Shown: positions 1,201 to 13,001, numbered from the stretch's first letter. The stretch is DNA of 13,175 bases from Pseudomonadota bacterium (GCA_041164285.1 JBEAPS010000259.1:1-13175), one strand, 5' to 3'. Numbers and translations are program-made. The notes: generated by a model from the letters alone, not told the origin.

Positions 1201-3360
1201 TTAACTTATGCATGTCAAAGTAAAGACAATTCCTGCGACAATGAGCGCTTGAAACCTAGTGTTAAAAGAGTTTGCAAAGAACTTGATCAAATCAATATTG
1301 AGTCTTCTGAGTTCAGTAATAAGCATTCCAAAACGAAGAACGAGCATTCCTAGAACGCTTGCAACCACAGCGCCCTCTGCCGAGAAGTTCTTAAAGCCAA
1401 AAATCACACACGAACAAAGCAAGACGCAACTCACGAATCCGAACGCAAGTATCCTCGATGATTTTCCTTGTGCACGTGCGAAAATATCTGCAGGAATGCA
1501 GGCGCCAATATTCAGTGCTAAGTAGGTTGTTAGGAAAAATACTGAACGATGATATTTCTCACCAAAAAGTAGCTGAATAATTTCTTCTGAGCAGAACATT
1601 AATGCGGCAGTCACAGGGATAACTATATTCGAGACACGACGAACGGCGCGCGCGACCATATCTCTGGAATGATCAAGCTGACCATTCCGCAGTGCAGTTG
1701 CCAAAGGTGCAAGTATGCGCTGGAATACTGACTGCTCCAGATACCCAACCAAGGGCAACGGAAGCAAGCCGGCAACAACAATAGCAAACTGCTCTCCTGA
1801 CAACATGCGGCTAAGATAAAATCGATCGAACATTACGGAGAAAGTAAACATCGCTGCAGCAAAACAAATTGGGAGCGCCTCCCGAAAAATAGCTAGCATG
1901 TTGTTCAAATTGAGTGGCTCAAACCTAATGAGTTTAAGGCGAGCGTTTACCAGAATCATAATAAGAAATCTTAAGAAAATGAAAATGCATATCAATGAAA
2001 AGACGGATCCAAAATTTTGAAGCGCGATTGTCACAGCAACAATCGATATTAATTTGGATACTTCAATCATTGAGACAAGAAATGAGCCTAAAAATGCACG
2101 ATTAGAGATTGCAAGGTTTTGTTCCAAAAACATAGACGGGATAAGAACTATGATTGATAGTGAAAGGATCATATTGTCTTTTAATGATTCTCTGTCGGAC
2201 CCCATCGGTGAGATAAAATAGATAAAAACAGCAAAAAGCATTGCGAAGTAGTTATTTAAATTAAATGCAACTGTCGGTTTGCTTGCCGCGTTCACACCAT
2301 TTGATTTCCAAAACGGGAGCAAGCTCCAGAAGCCAGAGGTCAAGCTAAGACTTCCTGCAGAGGAAAGATAAAAACCAAACGTTCGGTAGTCAGAGAATTG
2401 CTCTTTGGTCCCAAGCCTTGCGAGAATAACGGGGGTAAGCAGGCCTAAGAATGCTACACATGTTTGCATAACTGCCTGAAGCGCCGGCATATGCTCTAGC
2501 TCGTTCGTTTTTCGAAGTATCTTTGCAAATAAATAGTCTGCAACGTGTCGAACGAGGCTGTTGAACCAATGCAAGAGGAGAAGTGGTCGCACTCTCACAA
2601 GCTCAAATCCAGACCGAGCCAACACTTCGACAGCTCCCCGCTTCAAGAGGAGCGCATGTTGATGAGACGCGAGAGAGTCGCTCTGACCTAGACGCCACAT
2701 ATAGGTCTCTCTGAGCGACAAAGTCGCGGGGGAGCTCCTCACAAGACGCAAAAGAAAATCCATGTCCTCGCATCGCCAGAGGCACTCATTGAAGCCACCA
2801 TGTTTGAGGAATGCATCTTTACGAATGAACAGTCCAGAAGGTTGAAGCCAGTTGCCCATCAATGCTTGTTTTTTTGCGTCCCCATGCCAAACTACTTGCG
2901 GTGCTTGAAGAGGAAATAGGTTCCTGAACCTTGACGAACTTCTCTTAAAGACTGGAAAAGCACCGATAAAGCCCTGTGGATCCGCGTAGGGGTTCAATAG
3001 AGCATCTGTAAGGATTGAGTTAGCAAGAATCCATTCAACATTTGAATTTTTCTCTTTGACTTCCTGCAGAGTCGCGAGATGATCTGGCAGCCAGACATCG
3101 TCTGAATCGATAAAAGCAATCCACTCTGACGAACATTTATCCACACCGAGATTACGTGCCCTGGAGGGACCACCTCTGCGACAGTTGAGGAGTATGATGT
3201 CACTCTGACTCCTGCACCACAACACTGTGCCATCGGTCGAGCCGTCGTCGACAACAACAATTTCTCTCGGCGTGAAACTCTGACGCCTTACTGAGTGAAT
3301 GCATTGCTTGAGAAGTCCCAATCTGTTGTATGTCGGAATGACCACAGAAACTTCATTCAT
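1201..3360 (-). CDS. Fusion protein: N-terminal family-2 glycosyltransferase (about aa 1-270, nt ~3360-2550) plus C-terminal 12-14-TM MOP/Wzx-like polysaccharide flippase domain (about aa 280-719, nt ~2520-1201)
   Basis: N-terminus VSVVIPTYNRLGLLKQCIHSVRRQSF...IVVVDDGSTDGT...IAFIDSDDVW is a classic GT2 (GT-A) signature with DxD. The C-terminal about 440 aa contains roughly 13 hydrophobic helices (for example FAMLFAVFIYFISPM, VFSLICIFIFLRFLIMILV, FAIVVAGLLPLPLVGYL, ILAFGFVSCVLLCSCVIFGF), resembling Wzx/PST-family polysaccharide biosynthesis proteins. RBS GAGGGA lies upstream of ATG at 3360. There is a 7-nt gap to the upstream gene. Confidence 0.8.
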   Translation of the reverse strand: MNEVSVVIPTYNRLGLLKQCIHSVRRQSFTPREIVVVDDGSTDGTVLWCRSQSDIILLNCRRGGPSRARNLGVDKCSSEWIAFIDSDDVWLPDHLATLQEVKEKNSNVEWILANSILTDALLNPYADPQGFIGAFPVFKRSSSRFRNLFPLQAPQVVWHGDAKKQALMGNWLQPSGLFIRKDAFLKHGGFNECLWRCEDMDFLLRLVRSSPATLSLRETYMWRLGQSDSLASHQHALLLKRGAVEVLARSGFELVRVRPLLLLHWFNSLVRHVADYLFAKILRKTNELEHMPALQAVMQTCVAFLGLLTPVILARLGTKEQFSDYRTFGFYLSSAGSLSLTSGFWSLLPFWKSNGVNAASKPTVAFNLNNYFAMLFAVFIYFISPMGSDRESLKDNMILSLSIIVLIPSMFLEQNLAISNRAFLGSFLVSMIEVSKLISIVAVTIALQNFGSVFSLICIFIFLRFLIMILVNARLKLIRFEPLNLNNMLAIFREALPICFAAAMFTFSVMFDRFYLSRMLSGEQFAIVVAGLLPLPLVGYLEQSVFQRILAPLATALRNGQLDHSRDMVARAVRRVSNIVIPVTAALMFCSEEIIQLLFGEKYHRSVFFLTTYLALNIGACIPADIFARAQGKSSRILAFGFVSCVLLCSCVIFGFKNFSAEGAVVASVLGMLVLRFGMLITELRRLNIDLIKFFANSFNTRFQALIVAGIVFTLTCIS

Positions 3361-3367
3361 GAGTCCC

Positions 3368-6181
3368 TCAGTCGCTGGTTGGGTTCCTCAGCTTTCCTTC
3401 CATCACACATTTAATCAGATCCGCTCTTGCAGACTGGTATTTACGGGGTTCTCGAGCCCAATTGACTCCATCAGTGACAAGTAAGTTCTCCGACTTTGTC
3501 TTTGCAAGACAAACAGGATTTAACTGACGAGCCCAATTTATGTACTCAGCATCAAATGAACCTTGCTTCCAGAACTTCATTCTGAGCGATGGAACTGGAG
3601 TATGGTCTTGCAACCCATAATTCCCAGGACGCCCGGGATAAAACAATGTTCCATCACCATTTCCCGTGAAATCGTAAAGATCTTTCCAAGGATCCTGTGT
3701 TTTGGCTTTTCTCCAGACGTTATTCACACTGTAATAAAGCACGGTTGATAGTTGATATTCATCAGCCATCCAAGGCCACACTCGAATGTAGGCCGCGTTT
3801 CTCTCAATCACGAAATCTGGCTCACCACTCGAGTCGAGCGACCCACAGCCATGGCTCATACAACTGACGTAGCTCCAAAGCTCGCGTTCTTCTGAAAAAC
3901 TAGGTTTGCCTTCTCTCACGAGTGTCTGCAAAAGAGGTGCAAATATATCGATATTTTCCTGCAAGCTTTTCCATGGGTACACTGTCACGAGGGAACTCAC
4001 GCTGGGAGCTGAAGCTTTGACGTCTGACGCTGCCTTATACAACATCATAAAGTCCTCTTGAACCGGCTCGTCCCACAGATAAACAAATGGTCGACTCCTC
4101 ATTCTTTCAATCAATCCATTCTCGATTGTGTCATCACTCGTTGCATCAAGGTAATCCTGCCATCTCTTCCAGTAGGAACGCCTTTCGTCTGAAGACGGAC
4201 TGTCAATGCGCGGAAGATCGACCCGCGCCCACGGGGGTAAAAAATCAATTACTGTTCTTAAAATTGACATTTCGAGACTCGGGTATCTACTGAGCAAAAC
4301 ATGTGCATCGCTGCGCTCTGCCAGTGTTTGAAATGGGTGCTTAATCCAAGCCTTGAGGGGAAGAATTCTATTTTCGATCATCTCTTTAATGTATTGTTTG
4401 GTCAGTGAAGCCTCCTCTCTGCCTGACTGACCATAATGCGCGAGCGATGCAAAGAATGGAGTAAACTCAGCCCTCATAGGCAGGGTCCACTTGTCGGGCA
4501 TTTCGAGTGGCAGAATATCGACCTTCAATTTCCAGGCCGGATTTATAACCTTAGCCGAGTCAATTGAATTGCCTGGATCATACATTAGATTCTGAAGAAA
4601 TCCTGAAACAGAACCTGGTTGTGCGGATCTACCTGCGGTTATCTCAGTGAAAAGCCACTCAAAAGAAGACGGATCTTCGTCGTGGCAGGGTGTCACAGCT
4701 GAGATTGGCACAAGAGCATCAATGTATTTTCCCGGTAACACACCTTCGTATGAAGGTTTCGTCACAGGAATACCAACGCCACCATACCACCTCAAACTAA
4801 GTCCGGCAGCTTTGAGGTTGGCACTTAGAATTGGCAAACTTCCACACCACGAATTAGTCTTTAGAGTGAGTAATGTGCTCTCGCCACGCGCAAGCTCCAA
4901 GCTGACTTCACTTTGCCAGTCTGTCGAACGGATATACTCAGGACGTTCCACCAGGCTTGTGAGTTGTACCCGCCCAACATCAGCGAAGCTCTTTAATGGA
5001 ACTGCTTTATTTAGTATAAAAACAGCAAGAATCATAAGAATTGATTTGTATTTAATGGTATAGTTTTTGACCATTTCCCGAAATGAATACTGAGCTCGAA
5101 ATTGCTCTCTCTGATTCCATTCATTTTTTCTGTCATTTTTTTTCGAGGCCTGCTCCAAAAACTTTTGAAGCATAAACGGGTCTGATGCTGAGCTGTTTGC
5201 TGGCAGGAAGCTCGCCCATGATTTAAGCTCACTGTGCCCAGGGATATCAGACAACAGAGCTGGCAGACCGAAGCCAATTGCTTCATATACTGCCAGTGGC
5301 ATTCCTTCTTCCTCGGACAGTGAGACAAACGCATCACACGCTTGATAAAAAAGATTGGGCACATCTGTGGCACCAAGGAACACAGGTGAAGCAACACCCC
5401 GCTGTGTCAGTGAGTTCAGTTCGCTCAAATAGTGCTCGTCGTTGATTGGCCCCACAAGAAGTACGCGCCACGCCTCTTGGGTTCTCTCCGGCAACTGTTG
5501 CCAGGCTCTCATGAGACGGTCAATTCCTTTTCCAGGAACTATTCTCCCCATGAATATCAGCAAATGCTGTTGCTTTTCTGCCTCTCTGATCCTGAACTCA
5601 TATGCCGAAGGGTATCGCCTGCTCAGAGCTTCACGAGCTGAAGCTGAGGATACGAATTGCGACGGAAACGCAACACCATTTGACACTACCGCCAATTTCT
5701 TTTCCGGAATGCCAAGTTGCCGATAGACCTCCTGCACTCTCCGAGAAACACTGCATATTATATTTGCAAATCGCGGAAAAAAGTTCTCATAAAGAAAGTA
5801 TCGAAATTTGCCTTTGCGCAGGTGAACAAAACTATGTTGTGTATGAATAATTTTCACTTTGCCCAAAAGCAGAAACGATATTATGACGGCATATATGAGT
5901 GCTCCCAGGTCGTGCGAGTGAATAATTTCAATCTTTTTTTGGCGGACTATCTCAAAGAGATAAAATAATGTTCGGAAGGAAAATCCGTTCAACTTTTGCC
6001 AAGAATAGACACTCACTCCATGCGCATGAAGCTCATTACAGAATGTCGAACTCAGTCCGTTCTTTTCATAAACTGCGACTGATGATTGATTTCCACGTAA
6101 TGCGAGCCCCGCTGCAAGGTTAGTCACACAACGTTCGAGCCCCCCTAACGCGAGATATTGAGTGATTTGCAAAACCCTCAT
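3368..6181 (-). CDS. Fusion protein: N-terminal GT4 (GT-B) glycosyltransferase (aa 1-~370), single TM helix (aa ~378-394, nt ~5047-4999), C-terminal about 540-aa extracytoplasmic glycoside-hydrolase-like domain (nt ~4980-3368)
   Basis: 937-aa ORF. N-terminal MRVLQITQYLALGGLERCV plus EX7E motif (EEEGMPLAVYEAIGFGLPALLSDIPG) are diagnostic of retaining GT4 enzymes. A TM segment KSILMILAVFILNKAV follows. The C-domain is rich in W/Y/D/E, with LWDEP (adjacent Asp-Glu) and NGDGTLFYPGRPG motifs. These are reminiscent of DUF4091/GH123-like or other TIM-barrel glycosidase folds, recalled from memory and not verified. The start ATG overlaps the upstream stop (ATGA at 6178..6181). Confidence 0.8.
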   Translation of the reverse strand: MRVLQITQYLALGGLERCVTNLAAGLALRGNQSSVAVYEKNGLSSTFCNELHAHGVSVYSWQKLNGFSFRTLFYLFEIVRQKKIEIIHSHDLGALIYAVIISFLLLGKVKIIHTQHSFVHLRKGKFRYFLYENFFPRFANIICSVSRRVQEVYRQLGIPEKKLAVVSNGVAFPSQFVSSASAREALSRRYPSAYEFRIREAEKQQHLLIFMGRIVPGKGIDRLMRAWQQLPERTQEAWRVLLVGPINDEHYLSELNSLTQRGVASPVFLGATDVPNLFYQACDAFVSLSEEEGMPLAVYEAIGFGLPALLSDIPGHSELKSWASFLPANSSASDPFMLQKFLEQASKKNDRKNEWNQREQFRAQYSFREMVKNYTIKYKSILMILAVFILNKAVPLKSFADVGRVQLTSLVERPEYIRSTDWQSEVSLELARGESTLLTLKTNSWCGSLPILSANLKAAGLSLRWYGGVGIPVTKPSYEGVLPGKYIDALVPISAVTPCHDEDPSSFEWLFTEITAGRSAQPGSVSGFLQNLMYDPGNSIDSAKVINPAWKLKVDILPLEMPDKWTLPMRAEFTPFFASLAHYGQSGREEASLTKQYIKEMIENRILPLKAWIKHPFQTLAERSDAHVLLSRYPSLEMSILRTVIDFLPPWARVDLPRIDSPSSDERRSYWKRWQDYLDATSDDTIENGLIERMRSRPFVYLWDEPVQEDFMMLYKAASDVKASAPSVSSLVTVYPWKSLQENIDIFAPLLQTLVREGKPSFSEERELWSYVSCMSHGCGSLDSSGEPDFVIERNAAYIRVWPWMADEYQLSTVLYYSVNNVWRKAKTQDPWKDLYDFTGNGDGTLFYPGRPGNYGLQDHTPVPSLRMKFWKQGSFDAEYINWARQLNPVCLAKTKSENLLVTDGVNWAREPRKYQSARADLIKCVMEGKLRNPTSD

Positions 6182-6918
6182 GACACACTCACCGGATCTG
6201 TGAGCGACTTAATCACACGTGCAGGGTTCCCAGCGAGTATGCATCGGTCTGGATAAATCCCGGCAGTTACCACTGCACCACTGGCTACAATACTGCCATG
6301 GCCGATCTGTGCCCCTTTCAGAACGATTGCTCCAGAGCCAATCCAAACATCGTCACCTATGACAATGGGCGCAGACGGTGGCATCCACCTCTGCAAGACA
6401 TCTTCGTTCTCTTGGGGAGCCGTGTTTGAAAGTCTGGGGTAAAATCTGCGACAAATTCTTTTTACCTGCTCAGCCCGTATTTCTGGCAAGGTTGGATGTG
6501 AATCATAGTCCTGTAGAAATACATTCCAGCTCAGCAATGCACGGTGCCCAATGGATATTTTCTCACGGGCAGAAATCCTACAGTCCCCAAGAACGGCACA
6601 TTCCCCAATACGAACAACTCCCTTACCTACAACCTCTAGCCGCGCATTTTCGAAAACAATGGAGTGATTCCCGATTTCAATTCGTGCTTCATCGCTGTAA
6701 ATTTGAATCGTCCGAGCATTCTGTATACGAACATTCTCTCCCAATCTCAGGTTGCGCCTGTATGACATTGCCCTTCGGATATAGTGTGATGAAAAATAGA
6801 ATGAAATATAATTCCGAAACATAGAAAATACTTGCATTCGATGAGACTTCATCGCTTTGAAAACGAGTTGAATGAAATGCCAGCGGCCTTGTTGTGAGGT
6901 TTCCCTTACTACTTCCAT
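6178..6918 (-). CDS. Hexapeptide-repeat (left-handed beta-helix) acyl/acetyltransferase, probable sugar O-acetyltransferase
   Basis: Imperfect [LIV]-G-x-x-x-x hexapeptide repeats throughout (IGNHSIVFENARLEVVGKGVVRIGECAVLGDCRIS; IGDDVWIGSGAIVLKGAQIGHGSIVASGAVVTAGIYPDRCILAGNPARVIK), as in LacA/WcaF/CysE-type transferases. The longest ORF starts at GTG 6942 and overlaps the upstream gene by 34 nt. An in-frame ATG at 6918 is preceded by AAGGAGAGGAGG and sits 4 nt after the upstream stop, so it is the preferred start. Confidence 0.8.
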   Translation of the reverse strand: MEVVRETSQQGRWHFIQLVFKAMKSHRMQVFSMFRNYISFYFSSHYIRRAMSYRRNLRLGENVRIQNARTIQIYSDEARIEIGNHSIVFENARLEVVGKGVVRIGECAVLGDCRISAREKISIGHRALLSWNVFLQDYDSHPTLPEIRAEQVKRICRRFYPRLSNTAPQENEDVLQRWMPPSAPIVIGDDVWIGSGAIVLKGAQIGHGSIVASGAVVTAGIYPDRCILAGNPARVIKSLTDPVSVS

Positions 6919-8030
6919 AGCACCTCCTCTCCTTGATCCCACGGACCAACGAGTAGGGAGCGAATCGCTTTCAGCGACGAATTAAAACTGGGTATTTTTT
7001 GCGCATATCTCAGAGCAATAACAAACAGTACAATCACAATAAGTATTCGAATCCACATTTCACCCGAACCATACTCAATAGCAAACAGTGAAAGCGATAG
7101 GCCAAGAAAGATTGGTACAAGTACCCAAAGCAATCGAAAAAAACGACGCAGTGAAAGAACAAAGACGGACTTGTTCCAGAACCACAGAAATGGCAACAAA
7201 CTTGCCATCCATTGAAGGTTGCCTTTACTCACACGCAATCGAGCGGCTTGCTCATTTAAATCCGATCTTCCCGCATGGTCACAGACGCAGAAACCCATCT
7301 TCTTATTGCGGCTGTATATAATGCGCTGGTTCGGATTGAGGGCCCTCATCACGAGTGGCAAAACGACGTCGTCGTTGATCCACTTCCGTCCCGCCAGAAA
7401 CCTCAAGGCAGTTTTCAAATAGTCGGTTCTATACAGGATAGTTGCTCCATGCACAGAGATTGGACCGCCTGCAACATTCTCAATGGATTTTATGAAAGCT
7501 TCCAGGGACCAAAACCATTTGCTCAGAAAACCAGATTTCCAAGTCGAGTAAGTTGGAGAGAAACCAACAACATCCGCAGATGCCAGATAGGAAATTGCGT
7601 TCCTCAATAACCTTTTATCCCAAACAACTCCACAATCGACCAAAGCAATCCACTGCCCCCGAGATTCCGAGGCCAGTGCATGGATGACCTTCCACTTAGA
7701 CCTAAATTTAAAATTTACGACATGTGCACCATATAATTTTGCATCGTCAGCGCTGCCATCGGTGCAGTCGTCGAGTCCACAAATCACCTGAACTGAAATT
7801 TCTGGAAATAGAAATTGCAAATGATCGACTGCCTCGAAAACACTTTGCAGGGTAAGTCTGAGACGCCCCTCCTCGTTGTGACAGGGAATTAAGACATCAA
7901 TTGAATGTGGTAAGTCTGAGGGTTGTGAATTCATTTTTTTAGCAGGACTCAACAGCGCGACAATAACAGGAAACGCAAAAAGAGAGACGAGAAGCAGAAT
8001 CGCTGCTAAAACCGCTGGCATCAACCACAT
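6909..8030 (-). CDS. Integral-membrane family-2 glycosyltransferase with synthase-like topology (N-terminal TM, GT-A domain, 2-3 C-terminal TMs)
   Basis: 373 aa. N-terminal helix MWLMPAVLAAILLLVSLFAFPVIVALL. GT2 core IDVLIPCHNEEGRL...GLDDCTDGS...ALVDCGVVWDK. C-terminal hydrophobic helices LLPFLWFWNKSVFVLSL, LLWVLVPIFLGLSLSLFAI and IRILIVIVLFVIAL. A GGGGGA SD lies 5 nt before ATG at 8030. No clean QxxRW motif was seen. Confidence 0.8.
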   Translation of the reverse strand: MWLMPAVLAAILLLVSLFAFPVIVALLSPAKKMNSQPSDLPHSIDVLIPCHNEEGRLRLTLQSVFEAVDHLQFLFPEISVQVICGLDDCTDGSADDAKLYGAHVVNFKFRSKWKVIHALASESRGQWIALVDCGVVWDKRLLRNAISYLASADVVGFSPTYSTWKSGFLSKWFWSLEAFIKSIENVAGGPISVHGATILYRTDYLKTALRFLAGRKWINDDVVLPLVMRALNPNQRIIYSRNKKMGFCVCDHAGRSDLNEQAARLRVSKGNLQWMASLLPFLWFWNKSVFVLSLRRFFRLLWVLVPIFLGLSLSLFAIEYGSGEMWIRILIVIVLFVIALRYAQKIPSFNSSLKAIRSLLVGPWDQGEEVLWK

Positions 8031-8088: not shown

Positions 8089-9327
8089 TTAGTTTTGTTT
8101 CCGCAGAATCAACGGATATGACGCTGAATTAAAAGCCGAAATCCCCCAACCTGTAAGTAGACAGCGAGAATCGGAACCTCGTTCGGCGCTCAATCGCCAA
8201 GCAAGGGGAATATTTGCTTGCATATTAACAAACGTAAGTCGACCCGTACTCGCATTGTATTTTCCAAAAGCAAAAGGAAGACGAAACTCTCCTGAGGGTG
8301 TTGAAAACACTCCTGCGTATTGCTCAGTGCCGATTTTTTCGAGACTAAAAGTTCCTGAATGACCCGCAAGTGTCACGTAGTATTGACCCAAGAGTTCTGA
8401 TTCTGCACATGGCTCGTTGGAAAATGATCGAATACTGACAATGCGTCTCGCTTCAAATCGAGTTTTTTTGAGCGCGATGGGCTCCAAAACGGTTCCAGAG
8501 ACCATTTCAAAATTTTCGTCGAAATTCAACTCAATTACGGATGGAACCTGCGAGGCAAATGACTGACGACTTATAAGGCTTTGAGGCTGTCCCTGGAATG
8601 AGACATTCTTGAAGACCATAGGCGGAATAGTAGGGTGAGTGAGAGCCGCGACAATCCCTAAATCCCCGCCACTTGAAAATAGAATTAACTTTAGTTTGTC
8701 AATCTCTTCTTGCAATGGACCATCAATTACTGTGAGCTGAAAAGCTCCCTCCCAGCCATTAAAAACTTCCAAGAGCTGCGTAGAGAGGGAACTCGCTAAA
8801 CTCAAAGCATGACGTGAAATATAGTCTGCATCGTCTAATCTTCGACTCGTTGCTTCTGCGTTCCCCGCAAAACAGACGAGATTCCGGATGATGTCTTCAC
8901 TCTTAAATTCACCTACCCTACGCAGAAAGAAATCGAGGGCTGCGTAACGTCGCGCATCGCTCGCTAACTCAGAATATGCGGCAGAGAGCCTTTGACAGTC
9001 GCGCCAGACCCACTGCACGAGAGCAAAGAGAATTTGATCTTTCAGTGCCTTGGCTTCGCGCAGAACGTAGTCTTCATCATTCAATCGTGCAATGAGTTCA
9101 ACGACTCCACCAGCGAAGAGTAACAAATTGTTCAGTTTGGCTTCTTCTTTCTCTTTGCCAAAGTCATTACGAAGTTTAGAAATGAATTGAAACCGATAAG
9201 CCTGCCCTTTTTCTTCAAGAACTTTGAGCTCAGAGCGCACGTCACAGATCGGTAACCCGCACCCCAATCCTACTTGAGTAAAATTAATACACACGAAAAG
9301 AGCAGACAACGTAAAAAATGGTCTCAT
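8089..9327 (-). CDS. Hypothetical secreted or periplasmic protein of unknown function (first gene of the glycan operon). The longest ORF extends to a TTG at 9459.
   Basis: The ORF track gives 8089..9459 with a TTG start. The first in-frame ATGs are at 9417 and 9327. The ATG at 9327 begins MRPFFTLSALFVCINFTQVGLGCGLPIC, a convincing signal peptide (positive n-region, hydrophobic core, Cys-containing region that could be a lipoprotein site). The mature protein has a helical N-half and a beta-rich C-half, with no motif I can assign to a known family. The start is uncertain within 9327/9417/9459. Confidence 0.55.
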   Translation of the reverse strand: MRPFFTLSALFVCINFTQVGLGCGLPICDVRSELKVLEEKGQAYRFQFISKLRNDFGKEKEEAKLNNLLLFAGGVVELIARLNDEDYVLREAKALKDQILFALVQWVWRDCQRLSAAYSELASDARRYAALDFFLRRVGEFKSEDIIRNLVCFAGNAEATSRRLDDADYISRHALSLASSLSTQLLEVFNGWEGAFQLTVIDGPLQEEIDKLKLILFSSGGDLGIVAALTHPTIPPMVFKNVSFQGQPQSLISRQSFASQVPSVIELNFDENFEMVSGTVLEPIALKKTRFEARRIVSIRSFSNEPCAESELLGQYYVTLAGHSGTFSLEKIGTEQYAGVFSTPSGEFRLPFAFGKYNASTGRLTFVNMQANIPLAWRLSAERGSDSRCLLTGWGISAFNSASYPLILRKQN

Positions 9328-9584
9328 CCACTTCAAGTCATTGTAATCGGACTCTCGTTTGCGTTTTTTAAAACTGAAAATCGTAACCACAGTCGCCCCT
9401 CCAAACTTAATCGACATTCTGGAGAGTCGTTCAAATCCAGCCTCGCTGTCTCGTCTCAATTATTGGATCTGAAAAATATTCACTTTGCCTGCTCGCAACT
9501 GACATAATTTTAAGTTTCGGAAATTTTCGCAGTCCTGTTTATTGAAAATCTTATCCACTCTCTTTGAACAAAATGAATTTCTCC

Positions 9585-10721
9585 TCACCTGCCTGAAGGT
9601 GAGCCACAGACCTGCGGAGCCGTAAAGCCGAGTTTAAGGAGATCAAAATAATTTTGTCCCAACGCTATCTGCCGGTAGGCCGTGTCATCTACACGAGAAA
9701 GCACCGCACTCGTAAGCTTTACTTCTTCACTGTAGACTTGTTCCGATTTGTCCTCAGATGCAACAAAATCGGTGCCCGTTATGAAGCGCTTAGGCCACTT
9801 GTTCATTAGCTCTACATACGGCCCCACGTAGCTTTCATTGGAGAACACTTGGTCATACAACACCCGCCAGGCAATATCGAATGTAAGATTGGAATATCTG
9901 TTCATCAGGTTTTCAAGGATGGCTACGTGTTTGGATTTATCAAACTCTTTGAGCTCTTTTGAAAGTCCCAAATGAAGCCAGATAATCTTATTATCGGGGT
10001 AGAGTTTAAGAACCTCTTCCATTTGGGGAAGGTACTTGAAAGGCTCATTGTCGTTCCCAATATCTGAGTGAAAAGCAACAGGGATATCGAGACGCTTAAG
10101 TTCGTTCATGAACGGTGCCCATTCCGCAATTTTTTGAAGACTGACAGCTGAGTGCTGATTTTTAAAGAGCGCCTGTTTAACGAGGTTCACCTCGCCCATC
10201 CATCGGAACATTCCCGGATATTCATTGTTGAGAAGGCCCATTTGTTCGAGAACACCGCCCGGCTGCGCCAAGTCAGGGAACGTCATCGACAGTGTGAGTT
10301 TCAGGTCGGCGGGAGCATTGTCGAGTAGACTTTGTGCATTGTAAAAGTCGTTCTTCAAACTAGGAAGAACCGGAGTGCCAGGGCAATCGAGATAGTAGGT
10401 ACACCTCGAGTCAACCGGAAGTCGCTGACCAATGCCATAGAGAGTTGCAAAAATCACCCCACTCCTGCGCATATAGTCGAGAAGTTTCGTGAACGGCACG
10501 GGTTTTCCACCAAATGGACGTGAATGGAGATGACTGTCGACCACAGCCACTGGTCCGTGCTTTTTCCTATCGAAGCACGCTGCATTTGCTTTAGAAAAAT
10601 CAGAAATTGTCAGCTCGTGAGGCTTTAGCTTCTGATAGAGAGAAGTTTTCTCGGAATTCAGCTTGCAGGACATCTGGAGAAAAAAAAGCACGAACATTGA
10701 ACTTTTAAGAATGTAACTCAC
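9585..10721 (-). CDS. Amidohydrolase_2-family (TIM-barrel metal-dependent hydrolase) protein with N-terminal signal peptide
   Basis: 378 aa. VAVVDSHLH is the canonical D-x-H-x-H metal-binding start of Amidohydrolase_2. Later conserved His and Asp residues occur in VAFHSDIG, WLHLGLS and FITGTDFVAS. The N-terminus MSYILKSSMFVLFFLQMSCKLNS has a hydrophobic signal-like segment ending in Cys. Start is GTG at 10721, and an alternative ATG at 10697 lacks an SD. Confidence 0.75.
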   Translation of the reverse strand: MSYILKSSMFVLFFLQMSCKLNSEKTSLYQKLKPHELTISDFSKANAACFDRKKHGPVAVVDSHLHSRPFGGKPVPFTKLLDYMRRSGVIFATLYGIGQRLPVDSRCTYYLDCPGTPVLPSLKNDFYNAQSLLDNAPADLKLTLSMTFPDLAQPGGVLEQMGLLNNEYPGMFRWMGEVNLVKQALFKNQHSAVSLQKIAEWAPFMNELKRLDIPVAFHSDIGNDNEPFKYLPQMEEVLKLYPDNKIIWLHLGLSKELKEFDKSKHVAILENLMNRYSNLTFDIAWRVLYDQVFSNESYVGPYVELMNKWPKRFITGTDFVASEDKSEQVYSEEVKLTSAVLSRVDDTAYRQIALGQNYFDLLKLGFTAPQVCGSPSGR

Positions 10722-10899
10722 TGTTTTCCATCGCCCTATGAATAAAAAGGTATTCTCAAAGTGATCCAGACCGTTCCGTGGATCAAATATATTTCGTTAA
10801 TGTGACCAAGCTCAATTGGAGCAGATTTTTGATAACTCACGCAAATATTTTAATCTGCGCATATCTGGACTTCATCTGTCAATTTCGCATTCATTGCGC

Positions 10900-10931
10900 T
10901 TGAAAAAAATTTCAAACGAAGATTTTATTCT
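10900..10931 (+). promoter_or_regulatory. Candidate sigma70-type promoter for the flotillin gene, overlapping a palindrome TTGAAA-AAAA-TTTCAA
   Basis: TTGAAA (10900-10905) is a near-consensus -35. A T/A-rich -10 candidate (TTTATT at 10924-10929, or TATTCT at 10926-10931) sits 18-20 nt downstream. It lies about 30 nt upstream of the ATG at 10960. The -35 is part of a perfect 6-bp inverted repeat with a 4-bp spacer (10900-10915) that could be an operator. Confidence 0.25.
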
Positions 10932-10959
10932 ATGTTCGACACTTCCATAGGAGCAATAC

Positions 10960-12270
10960 ATGCTGAATTTCGGAACATTTGAAATCTTCGTCGTGACAGT
11001 GATTGGTATAATAGTCCTTACTTCAATATTACTTCGGAGAGTTGTACCGACAAACGAAGTTCATATCGTTCAGTCAGCTAAACAAACAACTTCCTACGGT
11101 AAAGACACTCAAAATGGAAACTCCTATTATGAGTGGCCCTCGTGGATTCCTGTATTGGGAGTCACGACAGTTTCTCTTCCCATGTCTGTCTTCGACCTAG
11201 ATCTTGAATCATACGAGGCTTACGATAAGGGTCGTTTGCCGTTCGTAGTGGATGTTAAGGCATTTTTCCGAATTTCGGAGTCGAACGTCGCTGCGCAACG
11301 TGTCGCATCTTTTGAAGAACTCAAGGATCAGCTCAAAGCAATTGTTCAGGGCGCAGTCCGCGTTATTTTGGCCTCAAGCGACATAGAAGACATTCTTCAA
11401 GGGCGCTCAACATTTGGTGAGCAGTTCACACGTGAGGTGACAGAACAGCTCATGCACTGGGGTGTCTCTGCGGTGAAAAACATAGAGCTGATGGATATTC
11501 GCGACTCACAGGAAAGCAGAGTCATTCACAATATTATGGATAAGAAAAAGTCTCACATCGAGATGGAGTCGCGAACGGAAGTTGCAAAAAACAGAAAAAT
11601 TGCTGAGATAGCTGAAATCGAAGCAAAGCGAGAAGTTGATCTTCAAAATCAAGTTGCAACGCAGGCTGTTGGCCTTCGAACAGTAGAGGCACAGAGGGAA
11701 GTTGCACTCCAAACAGAAACGGCAGAGCAGGCGATTAAAGAGCAGCAAAAGCTCACAAAACAGAAGGAAATGGAAGTTCGAAAAGTCGAACTGGTCAAAG
11801 TTGCAGAAATAGAAAAAGAGACCCAAATCATCAAGGCAGAGCAGATTAAAGAGACTCTGATTCTTGAAGCTGATGGTGCACTAGAAGCTAAGCGAAAAGA
11901 GGCAGCAGGTATTCAAGCAGAGGGTATTGCAAAGGCTGAAGCGGAGAAAGCTCTTCAACTAGCACCTGTTCAAGCGCAGATTGAACTCGCTAAAGAGATT
12001 GGCGAAAACAAGAGTTACCAGGAATATCTTGTCACAATAAGACGGGTCGAAGCTGAAGAGACTGTGGGTGTGAAGCAAGCTGAAGCATTGATGCAGGCAA
12101 ACATCAAAGTTATCGCTAACTCTGGCGACATCAATCATGGCTTTAAGTCCATTTCTGACGTCTTGAGCTCAAAAGGTGGAACTGCAATTGGTGCGCTGCT
12201 TGAGGGTATCAACAACACTGAGGTGGGTGGCACACTTCTCAGTAACCTGACTAAACAGCCACAGGCCTAA
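10960..12270 (+). CDS. Flotillin-family SPFH/band-7 membrane protein (FloT/YqiK-like)
   Basis: 436 aa. N-terminal TM FEIFVVTVIGIIVLTSILL is followed by an SPFH-type core (VVPTNEVHIVQS...LPFVVDVKAFFRI). A long Glu/Ala/Gln/Lys-rich coiled coil with EA repeats follows (AEIAEIEAKREV...AEGIAKAEAEKALQLA), and then a Gly-rich C-terminal tail. SD GGAGCA lies 7 nt before ATG at 10960. Confidence 0.85.
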   Translation: MLNFGTFEIFVVTVIGIIVLTSILLRRVVPTNEVHIVQSAKQTTSYGKDTQNGNSYYEWPSWIPVLGVTTVSLPMSVFDLDLESYEAYDKGRLPFVVDVKAFFRISESNVAAQRVASFEELKDQLKAIVQGAVRVILASSDIEDILQGRSTFGEQFTREVTEQLMHWGVSAVKNIELMDIRDSQESRVIHNIMDKKKSHIEMESRTEVAKNRKIAEIAEIEAKREVDLQNQVATQAVGLRTVEAQREVALQTETAEQAIKEQQKLTKQKEMEVRKVELVKVAEIEKETQIIKAEQIKETLILEADGALEAKRKEAAGIQAEGIAKAEAEKALQLAPVQAQIELAKEIGENKSYQEYLVTIRRVEAEETVGVKQAEALMQANIKVIANSGDINHGFKSISDVLSSKGGTAIGALLEGINNTEVGGTLLSNLTKQPQA

Positions 12271-12273
12271 TTC

Positions 12274-12297
12274 CTCACTGGGAAAGCGAGGAGCGTT
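12274..12297. terminator. Weak imperfect hairpin in the 26-nt convergent junction between the flotillin and SDR genes
   Basis: TCCTCaCTGGGAAAGcGAGGA: 5-bp stem TCCTC/GAGGA plus 2 further pairs across an A/C mismatch. It has no flanking T-tract and overlaps the SDR stop codon. Only weakly terminator-like. Confidence 0.15.
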
Positions 12298-13001
12298 CAC
12301 CAGGGAAGTGTCGAGCCGTCATAATTTTTGAACGTTCCTGTGTCGGTAGGCTTGAGTTGGAAAATGACTCGAAGAAGTGAAGCAACGGACTCTTGCACAG
12401 TGAGAGGTGCTTGTTGGCCGCCCATGTCGGTCTGCACCCAGCCCGGATGCATGGCCACTGTAATCAACTCGGGCCGATCAATGGCAAAACTACGCACACA
12501 CATATTCAATGCAGCCTTACTCGCTCGGTAAGCGTAATAGCCACCACTCGCATTGTCAGCCAATGAGCCCATGAGGCTTGAGATATTGACAACTTTTCCA
12601 CCCGTCTCTGCAATTTGATCGCTCAGGGCAGAGATAAGTCGCAGCGGTCCGATAGCATTTACGTTAAATGACTTCATGAGGGCATCAGGATTGAAGTTTT
12701 GCCCAACACCGCCATCGTCTTCAAATAGACCGGCATTATTAATGAGCAGATCGAGTCTGTTCCCAGAGAGTGACTCTTTGAGTTTCAAGGCGAATGCACC
12801 AACAGAGTCTGTATCACTCACATCGAGCTTAAGAACATTAAGCCGACCTTCAGAATTTCGCATTAATTGATTGAGCTCAGTTGCTTTCTCGGGATTACGG
12901 ACACCCGCAACGACCATCAATTCGTTAGAATTGGCGAGCAGTTGTCTGCAAAACTCTAGCCCTAAGCCACGATTGGCCCCTGAAATACAAACATTGAGCA
13001 T
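12297..13001 (-). CDS. Short-chain dehydrogenase/reductase (classical SDR, C-factor/sniffer-like subgroup)
   Basis: 234 aa. N-terminal cofactor-binding ISGANRGLGLEF (TGxxxGxG variant), LLINNAGL (NNAG motif), NAIGP, catalytic S...YYAYRASKAALN (S-Y-x-x-x-K triad) and HPGWVQTDM. RBS GAGGTGAG lies 5-6 nt before ATG at 13001. Confidence 0.85.
   Translation of the reverse strand: MLNVCISGANRGLGLEFCRQLLANSNELMVVAGVRNPEKATELNQLMRNSEGRLNVLKLDVSDTDSVGAFALKLKESLSGNRLDLLINNAGLFEDDGGVGQNFNPDALMKSFNVNAIGPLRLISALSDQIAETGGKVVNISSLMGSLADNASGGYYAYRASKAALNMCVRSFAIDRPELITVAMHPGWVQTDMGGQQAPLTVQESVASLLRVIFQLKPTDTGTFKNYDGSTLPW

Follow-up and report, generated by a model that had tools for sequence, protein, structure and literature searches.

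A GT4 glycosyltransferase joined through a signal-peptide-like segment to a predicted GH123-family hydrolase in a polysaccharide cluster of uncultured Silvanigrellaceae-like bacteria

Introduction

Operons for bacterial exopolysaccharides (EPS) can encode an extracytoplasmic glycoside hydrolase (GH) that acts on the operon's own polymer. Examples are PslG (GH39) for Psl of P. aeruginosa, BcsZ (GH8) for cellulose, PelA, and PgaB with its C-terminal GH153 domain. A single membrane helix at its N terminus tethers PslG, and in PgaB and PelA both the hydrolase and its partner deacetylase lie on the periplasmic side of the membrane. Here we describe a gene whose product joins a family 4 glycosyltransferase (GT4) domain to a predicted GH123-family domain through one hydrophobic segment. 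The gene, hereafter GT4::GH123, lies in a 13,175-nucleotide (nt) stretch of DNA (the window) from a Pseudomonadota bacterium (GCA_041164285.1 JBEAPS010000259.1:1-13175), and its host is an uncultured freshwater, Silvanigrellaceae-like bacterium. A further relevant enzyme is EpsB of M. xanthus, a predicted hydrolase that has an important, though nonessential, part in the synthesis of EPS by a Wzx/Wzy pathway (PMC7484181). PslG, BcsZ, PelA, PgaB, and EpsB all resemble GT4::GH123 in that a glycoside hydrolase is encoded inside an EPS operon, but they belong to GH families other than GH123. To our knowledge, none of the five is covalently joined to a cytoplasmic glycosyltransferase.

Single polypeptides that carry both a glycosyltransferase and a GH fold and that serve the same polymer are also known. 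NdvB combines GH17 with GT2, and Cgs combines GT84 with GH94 and further GH-like domains. These proteins differ from GT4::GH123 because they are built from other families and are processive synthases outside Wzx/Wzy pathways, and because their GH folds act as transglycosylases or phosphorylases. We know of no case among them in which the two activities are split across the membrane by a single-pass linker. MltG is the inner-membrane-anchored endolytic glycan-strand terminase of peptidoglycan synthesis. It may offer a functional analogy as a single-pass, membrane-tethered glycan cleaver beside a polymerase of lipid-linked precursors, but its YceG fold and lytic transglycosylase chemistry distinguish it from the GH123 module. 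CAZy groups SEDS proteins in one clan with O-antigen ligases and with some Wzy-type polymerases.

A lineage-restricted join of a globular glycosyltransferase to a membrane or periplasmic module of the same surface-glycan pathway is seen in WadA, a bimodular O-antigen ligase (GT121) with a GT25 domain, whose fusion has been read as functional coupling (PMC10920833). Unlike GT4::GH123, both modules of WadA are transferases, no hydrolase is present, and the membrane module is a multi-pass GT-C protein.

The GH123 family has been enlarged by four new groups described by Sumida et al. (2024) and absorbed into GH123 by CAZy (PMC11087588). These authors reported substrate-assisted catalysis through an Asp-Glu (DE) motif, nine residues conserved in all groups (NgaLy D95, W115, D327, E328, Y392, G427, W431, Y466, and R478), and an open cleft in Group 1 enzymes that is suited to cleavage within longer chains. 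The characterized members of the family are all hydrolases, and they degrade host glycolipids and glycans (PMC11087588). The Group 1 member NgaCs is encoded among glycosyltransferase, O-antigen-ligase-like, and flippase genes (PMC11087588, supplementary table). Oligosaccharide-releasing members were suggested to act on repeat-unit exopolysaccharides or O-antigen, although their discoverers called the natural substrates and role unknown (Sumida et al. 2024; PMC11087588).

Results and Discussion

One reading frame encodes both domains

The gene is a single, uninterrupted ATG-to-TGA open reading frame (ORF) of 937 amino acids (aa) with zero internal stops (Table 1). It comprises a GT4 glycosyltransferase (aa 1-378), a hydrophobic segment (aa 380-400), and a C-terminal domain of 537 aa, hereafter the C-domain. 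An original prediction, made from the DNA alone, had proposed exactly such a polypeptide. Its reading frame proved unbroken, and each of the motifs that it listed, namely EX7E, the hydrophobic segment, LWDEP, and NGDGTLFYPGRPG, was located. An ATGA sequence combines its start codon with the stop codon of the acetyltransferase gene that lies upstream, and only 7 nt separate its own stop codon from the start of the next gene, which places the ORF inside an operon.

This architecture recurs. A search of 5.8 billion proteins returned 16 full-length relatives of 918-967 aa with 44-70% identity and the same three-part layout, drawn from JGI, ENA, NCBI, and Logan assemblies. Agreement on this scale greatly exceeds what chance would produce. 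When the C-domain was used by itself as the query, more relatives were recovered, including one fragment at 98% identity, and GT4-fused proteins form at least 18 clusters in all. When one genome per GTDB species was scanned, the full-length gene was present in 10 metagenome-assembled genomes (MAGs) labeled as Silvanigrella, Silvanigrellaceae, Oligoflexia, or unclassified "Pseudomonadota". None of the carriers found has been cultured; all are MAGs. In an alignment of 17 sequences both halves are well conserved, and the linker is variable in sequence yet always hydrophobic.

A merger of adjacent genes peculiar to this window, whether by a frameshift or assembly error (which the original prediction had placed at about 5000-5060) or by a lost stop codon, is extremely improbable. 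Overlapping neighbors that could merge in this way do exist in related genomes, as with the Wzy and GH123 genes of locus L015. Nevertheless, the same unbroken ORF of 918-967 aa occurs in all of these clusters and in the 10 species-level MAGs, and GT4 and GH123 halves were not seen as separate neighboring genes, in that order or otherwise, in any locus examined. Because the full-length form recurs in independent assemblies, the fusion is not a frameshift artefact.

The invariant M370 was considered as an internal start codon, or as a vestige of the start of a hydrolase gene, and was rejected. GT4 homology reaches aa 382, which places M370 in the last GT4 helix, and only a poorly spaced GGGA lies upstream. 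Rfam and tRNA scans of the window gave no matches, and counts of promoter and terminator patterns in the window were no higher than chance.

The N-terminal domain is a predicted GT4 transferase

By its sequence, the N-terminal domain is a GT4 enzyme and a predicted transferase with no equivalog specificity assigned. Both GT4 models of Pfam match well above their cut-offs: PF13439 (Glyco_transf_4; 1.5e-24, 87.4 bits against 28.5) over aa 13-170, and PF00534 (Glycos_transf_1; 4.6e-19, 69 bits against 26.4) over aa 199-319. The NCBIfam GT4 alignment extends to aa 382, and the AlphaFold 2 (AF2) model shows a Rossmann-type alternation of strands and helices. The complete GT4 unit that had been proposed is thus supported, including its EX7E motif. 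Among the 17 aligned sequences, the Gly-rich loop G13-G14-L15-E16 is at least 90% conserved, and the phosphate-binding R213 and K218 (GRxxxGKG) are invariant.

Sub-threshold similarity in NCBIfam extends to many EPS-type GT4 enzymes. All equivalog models score far under their cut-offs, the best being a PEP-CTERM/XrtA-type glycosyltransferase at 98 versus 409 bits. Beyond the fusion clade, the closest relatives of the GT4 domain, at 32-37% identity, are themselves GT4 domains that follow a Wzx flippase in a fusion protein.

The C-domain belongs to an uncharacterized GH123 subfamily

Fold, sequence, and catalytic pair together indicate that the C-domain is a member of GH123, in an uncharacterized subfamily. 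A profile built from the C-domain and 46 relatives matched the PDB sequences of NgaCa (3.6e-51), NgaDssm (1.5e-41), NgaAt (1.2e-34), NaNga (3.9e-17), and BvGH123 (1.1e-8). In the profile alignment, the YLWDEP motif falls on hLaDEP of NgaDssm and on YLWDEP of NgaAt. Its Asp-Glu pair, D704-E705, is invariant in a 71-sequence alignment, in 18 of 18 GT4-fused members and in all 126 free-standing members, and the pair is conserved in every architecture.

An AF2 model of the C-domain based on the 71-sequence alignment reached a predicted local distance difference test score (pLDDT) of 95.3 and a predicted template-modeling score of 0.94. It consists of a beta-sandwich, an alpha/beta barrel, and a C-terminal helical bundle, and the first 22 Foldseek matches to it were all GH123 structures. 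The original prediction had named DUF4091/GH123 among the families worth a profile search and had anticipated a barrel with a catalytic pair. Both the barrel and the invariant pair were recovered, and it would have yielded to a protein without a GH-like fold, which this one does not appear to be. When the conserved GH123 residues are mapped through the hidden Markov model (HMM) alignment, D488, W509, D704, E705, Y771, Y848, and R867 are kept. These are seven of the nine on the published list, which is an empirical one drawn from 17 sequences rather than a formal family definition.

By sequence, the closest characterized relative of the C-domain is the open-cleft, oligosaccharide-releasing Group 1 enzyme NgaCa (PDB 8K2F/8K2G; PMC11087588). 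The two have a common plan of beta-sandwich, (beta/alpha)8 barrel with a DUF4091 region, and helical C terminus. They are of similar length (516 aa for NgaCa and about 537 aa for the C-domain), and both carry the DE pair. However, they are only about 20% identical, and the central profile positions 181-311 did not align. NgaCa is also a free, soluble protein, whereas the C-domain is fused behind a GT4 enzyme and a membrane segment.

The linker resembles a retained signal peptide

The single hydrophobic helix of the original prediction is present at aa 380-400, close to where it had been placed. In an AF2 model of the whole protein (pLDDT 81), the last GT4 helix continues unbroken through aa 367-393. 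From its sequence, the segment would serve either to anchor the protein in the membrane in an N-in/C-out orientation or as a signal peptide that is internal and can be cleaved.

Several observations bear on which side of the membrane each half occupies. Among the 17 fusions, the mean net charge is +1.9 over the 12 residues before the uncharged stretch and -1.0 after it, which is the positive-inside pattern expected for an N-in/C-out orientation. Nearly all free-standing homologs of the C-domain, which are about 520-570 aa long, have a typical Sec signal peptide at the N terminus, and these signal peptides occupy the same position as the hydrophobic segment of the fusion. The C-domain has six invariant cysteines (C446, C499, C774, C779, C891, and C925) versus one in the GT4 half. 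Furthermore, GT4 enzymes use cytoplasmic nucleotide sugars. Because of these flank charges, signal peptides, cysteines, and substrate locations, we infer that a cytoplasmic GT4 and an extracytoplasmic C-domain constitute the best-supported topology. A cytoplasmic C-domain, which would have undone the original prediction, is disfavored by the same evidence.

The segment is closer in character to a retained signal peptide than to a classical anchor. This raises the prospect of one gene giving rise to two proteins, in which a functional internal signal peptide is cut by signal peptidase I after aa ~400 (SFA|DV), a soluble periplasmic GH123 protein is released, and the GT4 enzyme is left tail-anchored by the former signal peptide. 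The fusion would then secure co-expression, stoichiometry, and membrane targeting rather than permanent coupling. We regard such processing as a realistic possibility, albeit one that is rather unlikely.

Consistent with cleavage, the segment is built like a signal peptide: a positively charged flank is followed by a hydrophobic core, which in many members measures ~11-15 residues, and the core by a polar stretch. On inspection, small residues occupy positions -3 and -1 in 15 of the 17 fusions (SFA|D, AHA|Q, VFA|E, and ALS|V among them), but their occurrence in a short polar linker is not very improbable by chance. The segment also coincides with the cleavable-looking signal peptides of free-standing homologs, and the same pattern is seen in fusions of Wzy to GH123 (described below), where the ancestral Met is sometimes kept. 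The uncharged stretch of the window protein is only 12 residues long, whereas those of most homologs span 20-26 residues, enough to cross a membrane. Moreover, cleavage of an internal signal sequence located behind a folded cytoplasmic domain of ~380 aa is uncommon in bacteria. Processing of this kind is compatible with the enzymology proposed below and would differ only in the final state of the protein. It does qualify the permanent physical link envisaged by the original prediction. A single ORF encodes both halves, but a segment that ends like a signal peptidase site means that they may separate after export.

The GH123 subfamily is repeatedly fused to polysaccharide-assembly proteins

An exhaustive HMMER search of 1.84 billion representatives yielded 65 clusters at E <= 1e-30. 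Outside the GT4 clade, the closest relatives of the C-domain fall into three groups: Wzy_C fusions, acyltransferase-3/discoidin forms, and free-standing proteins with signal peptides. The Wzy_C::GH123 fusions (about 1000 aa) account for at least 17 clusters at 50% identity, a count made from size and position, and each of the eight clusters scanned was confirmed by Pfam to contain Wzy_C. Examples are P0137-P0159 and the protein encoded at 8447..11515 of locus L014. The other architectures are one acyltransferase-3 fusion and one discoidin-domain form. The hydrolase is joined to a Wzy polymerase more often than to a GT4 enzyme.

The Wzy_C::GH123 proteins of Bdellovibrionota resemble GT4::GH123 in belonging to the same subfamily (34-40% identity to the C-domain), in lying in a Wzx/Wzy cluster, and in carrying the DE pair. 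Their partner, a multi-pass polymerase/ligase of about 450-490 aa, is unlike the cytoplasmic GT4. Flank charges indicate that the junction between Wzy and GH123 is signal-peptide-like, as in the GT4 fusion; this result alone was used, since hydropathy helix counts are too crude for the topology of these proteins.

Two loci illustrate separate and joined states. In L015, from a Bacteriovoracaceae MAG, a Wzy gene (8386..9924) and a gene for a free-standing hydrolase (9921..11510) overlap by 4 nt, and in L014, from an Oligoflexia MAG, Wzy and GH123 are joined in a 1022-aa ORF. In both loci, the GT4 homolog is fused to a Wzx flippase. Such Wzx::GT4 proteins are 854-887 aa long (P0017, P0024, L014 1848..4412, and L015 2624..5272).

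In a tree built from an hmmalign alignment of 170 domains (neighbor-joining without bootstrap, and thus indicative only), the GT4-fused members form one clade, and its sister clade mixes Wzy-fused with free-standing members. Repeated fusion, together with retention of the DE pair in all architectures, suggests that this GH123 subfamily is an integral module of Wzy-dependent assembly in Bdellovibrionota. In the Silvanigrellaceae the modules appear to have changed partners, giving GT4::GH123 and GT2::Wzx, with Wzy free.

A proposed role in processing the cell's own polymer

We consider it probable, though far from secure, that GT4::GH123 is a bifunctional, membrane-spanning enzyme of a Wzx/Wzy pathway, with a cytoplasmic GT4 domain and an extracytoplasmic GH123 domain that trims the polymer made by the same cell. 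On the cytoplasmic face, the GT4 domain would transfer a single sugar from a nucleotide-sugar donor to the repeat unit carried on undecaprenyl diphosphate. The hydrophobic segment, presumably the former signal peptide of a hydrolase that had a gene of its own, would carry 537 aa across the inner membrane. After flipping and Wzy polymerization, the C-domain would make endo-type cuts at a beta-linked N-acetylhexosamine (HexNAc), probably N-acetylgalactosamine (GalNAc), inside the cell's own polymer. Catalysis would be substrate-assisted and retaining, with D704 positioning the 2-acetamido group and E705 serving as acid/base. The result could be membrane-tethered trimming, chain termination, or clearance of polymer, in line with roles proposed for PslG, BcsZ, PelA, PgaB, and M. 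xanthus EpsB (PMC7484181 for EpsB) and by functional analogy with MltG beside the polymerases of peptidoglycan.

The original prediction had gone further by proposing that chain synthesis is coupled to processing of the exported polymer. A covalent link that probably crosses the membrane can be retained from this proposal. The coupling to chain synthesis is overstated, because in a cluster of the Wzx/Wzy type the GT4 enzyme makes the lipid-linked repeat unit and does not polymerize it.

Several observations weigh against the trimming role. The window protein by itself falls short of the Pfam GH123_cat model PF13320 (formerly DUF4091), with an E-value of 1.9e-4 and 21.3 bits versus a cut-off of 23.1, and a single-sequence phmmer search with the C-domain found no relative in the PDB (all E-values above 0.7). 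Subfamily relatives do clear PF13320, such as P0146 at 64 bits. The 12-residue uncharged stretch is short for a stable membrane anchor. In L001-L003, three loci with the same gene order (see below), no initiating phosphoglycosyl transferase or GalNAc-forming epimerase was found within 10 kb. Finally, the two remaining conserved GH123 positions are altered, and the subfamily carries an extra loop. The equivalent of structural G427 is T813, a position that varies among R, T, G, and A in the clade, and the equivalent of substrate-site W431 is Y817; in all 18 GT4-fused members, as in most of the subfamily, this residue is Tyr. A C-x-x-H-x-C loop (S-C-M-S-H-G-C), located near the active site, is deleted in NgaCa, NgaDssm, and NgaAt. 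It is kept in nearly all of the 170 subfamily members, and its pLDDT is low with a shallow alignment and about 88-91 with a deep one. The loop could form a disulfide or a metal site beside the active center. Given the replacement of Trp by Y817 and Gly by T813, and the extra loop, specificity or chemistry such as transglycosylation may differ from that of the characterized enzymes.

These differences are relevant to a second interpretation, which is that the C-domain is a transglycosylase or transferase. Retaining GH enzymes can transglycosylate, and the oxazolinium chemistry of GH123 might be used to move polymer segments to another acceptor, with branching, cross-linking, or attachment of polymer to the cell surface as possible outcomes. 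The substituted substrate-site residue and the additional loop are compatible with this idea, as is the repeated fusion to Wzy_C, a polymerase/ligase family. We nonetheless consider it unlikely. No acceptor-site feature was identified in the C-domain, the usual accessory enzymes of EPS operons are dedicated hydrolases, and so are all characterized GH123-family enzymes (PMC11087588).

A third interpretation would have the C-domain act on foreign glycans, such as beta-GalNAc glycoconjugates from prey, host, or environment, for nutrition or attack, with the GT4 fusion being a chance outcome of gene order. The phylum Bdellovibrionota contains predators, and this could be taken to favor such a function. 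Degradation of host glycolipids and glycans by characterized relatives (PMC11087588) points in the same direction. Four observations make this interpretation quite improbable. The fusion, with both catalytic motifs invariant, is kept down to 44% identity. It sits in the same biosynthetic operon in the window and in L001-L003. Independent fusions to Wzy_C and acyltransferase-3 point to polysaccharide assembly. Lastly, an inner-membrane-tethered or periplasmic domain is poorly placed to reach external glycans. We retain the trimming of self-made polymer as the preferred role.

Genomic context

Judged from its genes, the cluster is a Wzx/Wzy-dependent EPS or capsule cluster. The minus strand encodes, in order, the 456-aa protein without a family match, a membrane GT2 enzyme, an acetyltransferase, GT4::GH123, a GT2::Wzx protein, and a CE4 deacetylase (Table 1), and this order is identical in L001-L003. 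The window protein itself had no exact counterpart in the assembly index, and homologous loci supplied the wider context. Those loci continue with an ATP-grasp/low-molecular-weight phosphatase gene and then a divergent block encoding a GT4 enzyme, Wzy_C, a weakly Wzz-like protein, Poly_export/SLBB, and another GT4 enzyme. The Wzz/GNVR-like protein, which resembles polysaccharide co-polymerases (PCP), has 351 aa and a weak match, and the Poly_export/SLBB protein represents the outer-membrane polysaccharide export (OPX) component. The window ends before this Wzy_C/PCP/OPX block, which is known from L001-L003.

The CE4 deacetylase lacks an N-terminal signal peptide and has weak NCBIfam matches to HfsH (holdfast oligosaccharide deacetylase) and PgaB. 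Lack of a signal peptide and the weak match to HfsH suggest that deacetylation occurs at the cytoplasmic, lipid-linked stage rather than in the periplasm. If catalysis by the C-domain needs a 2-acetamido group, as its likely mechanism implies, residues deacetylated by the CE4 enzyme would be protected from cleavage.

The downstream GT2::Wzx gene is itself a fusion, with a cytoplasmic GT2 domain at aa 5-210 followed by a multi-pass flippase (Polysacc_synt_3 at aa 313-607, with a weak MurJ match). It is kept at the same position in L001-L003 as a protein of 755-771 aa. The lineage has evidently shuffled which transferase is joined to which membrane module.

Other features of the locus can be noted. 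With its listed GTG start, the acetyltransferase gene shares 34 nt (6909..6942) with the end of the GT2 gene upstream. The predicted product is 254 aa, versus 242-270 aa in homologs, and the true start may lie further downstream. The 456-aa protein has no Pfam or NCBIfam match and carries a hydrophobic stretch in its N-terminal region; an unannotated gene of 421-431 aa occupies the same place in L001-L003. At the other end, an open frame runs off the window edge and overlaps the end of the deacetylase gene. Its counterpart in L001-L003 encodes 611-620 aa, in which an ATP-grasp-like region is combined with a low-molecular-weight phosphotyrosine phosphatase domain at the C terminus. This fusion is unusual in Wzx/Wzy clusters, where the phosphatase is normally a small, separate protein. 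The three genes in 9585..13001, beyond the conserved block, are not syntenic with the cluster in L001-L003.

Table 1. Features of the window, numbered from its first nucleotide
Feature	Position	Strand	Evidence or remarks
Open frame MRLPERSVVIVTDAECSSALSCIRTLGRSGYHVF, running off the window edge	1..~250	-	
CE4-type polysaccharide deacetylase, 312 aa	247..1185	-	PF01522 5.2e-13; syntenic in L001-L003
GT2::Wzx-type flippase, 719 aa, downstream gene	1201..3360	-	PF00535 9.8e-30, PF13440 7.1e-11
GT4::GH123, whole ORF (GT4, signal-anchor segment, GH123-like domain)	3368..6181	-	Full-length conservation in 16 homologs
C-terminal helical bundle, aa 866-932, with invariant C891 and C925	3386..3586	-	Alignment, AF2
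NGDGTLFYPGRPG motif, aa 841-853, including Y848 (equivalent of structural Y466 of NgaLy)	3623..3661	-	
Subfamily loop C774-M-S-H777-G-C779, directly after substrate-site Y771	3845..3862	-	
Predicted catalytic pair D704-E705 in YLWDEP (LWDEP aa 702-706)	4067..4072	-	Aligned to GH123 DE motif
(beta/alpha)8 catalytic barrel with DUF4091/GH123_cat region, aa ~569-865	3587..4477	-	
N-terminal beta-sandwich of C-domain, aa ~405-560, including D488 and W509 (NgaLy D95, W115)	4502..4969	-	AF2, NgaDssm alignment
Hydrophobic signal-peptide-like segment SILMILAVFILNKAVPLKSFA, aa 380-400	4982..5044	-	Hydropathy peak
GT4 domain (GT-B, retaining), aa 1-378, predicted cytoplasmic	5048..6181	-	Pfam, NCBIfam, AF2
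EX7E motif, E292...E300, in EEEGMPLAVYEA (aa 290-301)	5282..5308	-	E292 and E300 invariant in 17 sequences
Hexapeptide-repeat acetyltransferase, upstream gene	6178..6942	-	PF00132; NCBIfam WbbJ-like 2.7e-19
Membrane GT2 glycosyltransferase, 373 aa	6909..8030	-	PF00535, PF13641; syntenic in L001-L003
456-aa protein, first gene of conserved block	8089..9459	-	No family match
Amidohydro_2 protein with N-terminal hydrophobic leader	9585..10721	-	Beyond conserved block
SPFH/Band-7 flotillin-like protein with long Glu/Lys/Ala-rich coiled tail	10960..12270	+	Beyond conserved block
Short-chain dehydrogenase	12297..13001	-	Beyond conserved block

Concluding remarks

Both domain families, the presence of hydrolases inside EPS operons, and the suggestion that Group 1 enzymes act on EPS or O-antigen (PMC11087588) were already known. 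In the open-access literature, we found no description of the GT4-membrane segment-GH123 architecture, of Wzy::GH123 fusions, or of any characterization of the subfamily, though such an absence is no proof of novelty. The architecture had likewise not been recognized when it was first predicted from this DNA.

Gene fusions are strong guilt-by-association evidence. The GH123 subfamily is covalently joined to three polysaccharide-assembly proteins, namely GT4, the Wzy polymerase, and acyltransferase-3, in one type of cluster, which leads to the testable hypothesis that it acts at the periplasmic face and processes the polymer that Wzy makes in the same cell. A more speculative extension, which we consider doubtful, is that the subfamily serves as a membrane-proximal "terminase" of Wzy-dependent assembly that has repeatedly been welded to pathway proteins encoded nearby. 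If so, it would cut the growing chain at a beta-HexNAc between repeat units and thereby set chain length or release the polymer, as MltG does in peptidoglycan synthesis, and its partner would be Wzy, acyltransferase-3, or GT4, whichever is encoded next door. For the GT4 fusion, retention of the internal signal peptide may also let one ORF yield two proteins on opposite sides of the membrane.

Whichever final state applies, GT4::GH123 would represent a rare architecture, in which a glycosyltransferase and a glycosidase are placed on opposite sides of the membrane by way of a former signal peptide. Its function would be relevant to how chain length and quality are controlled in Wzx/Wzy pathways.

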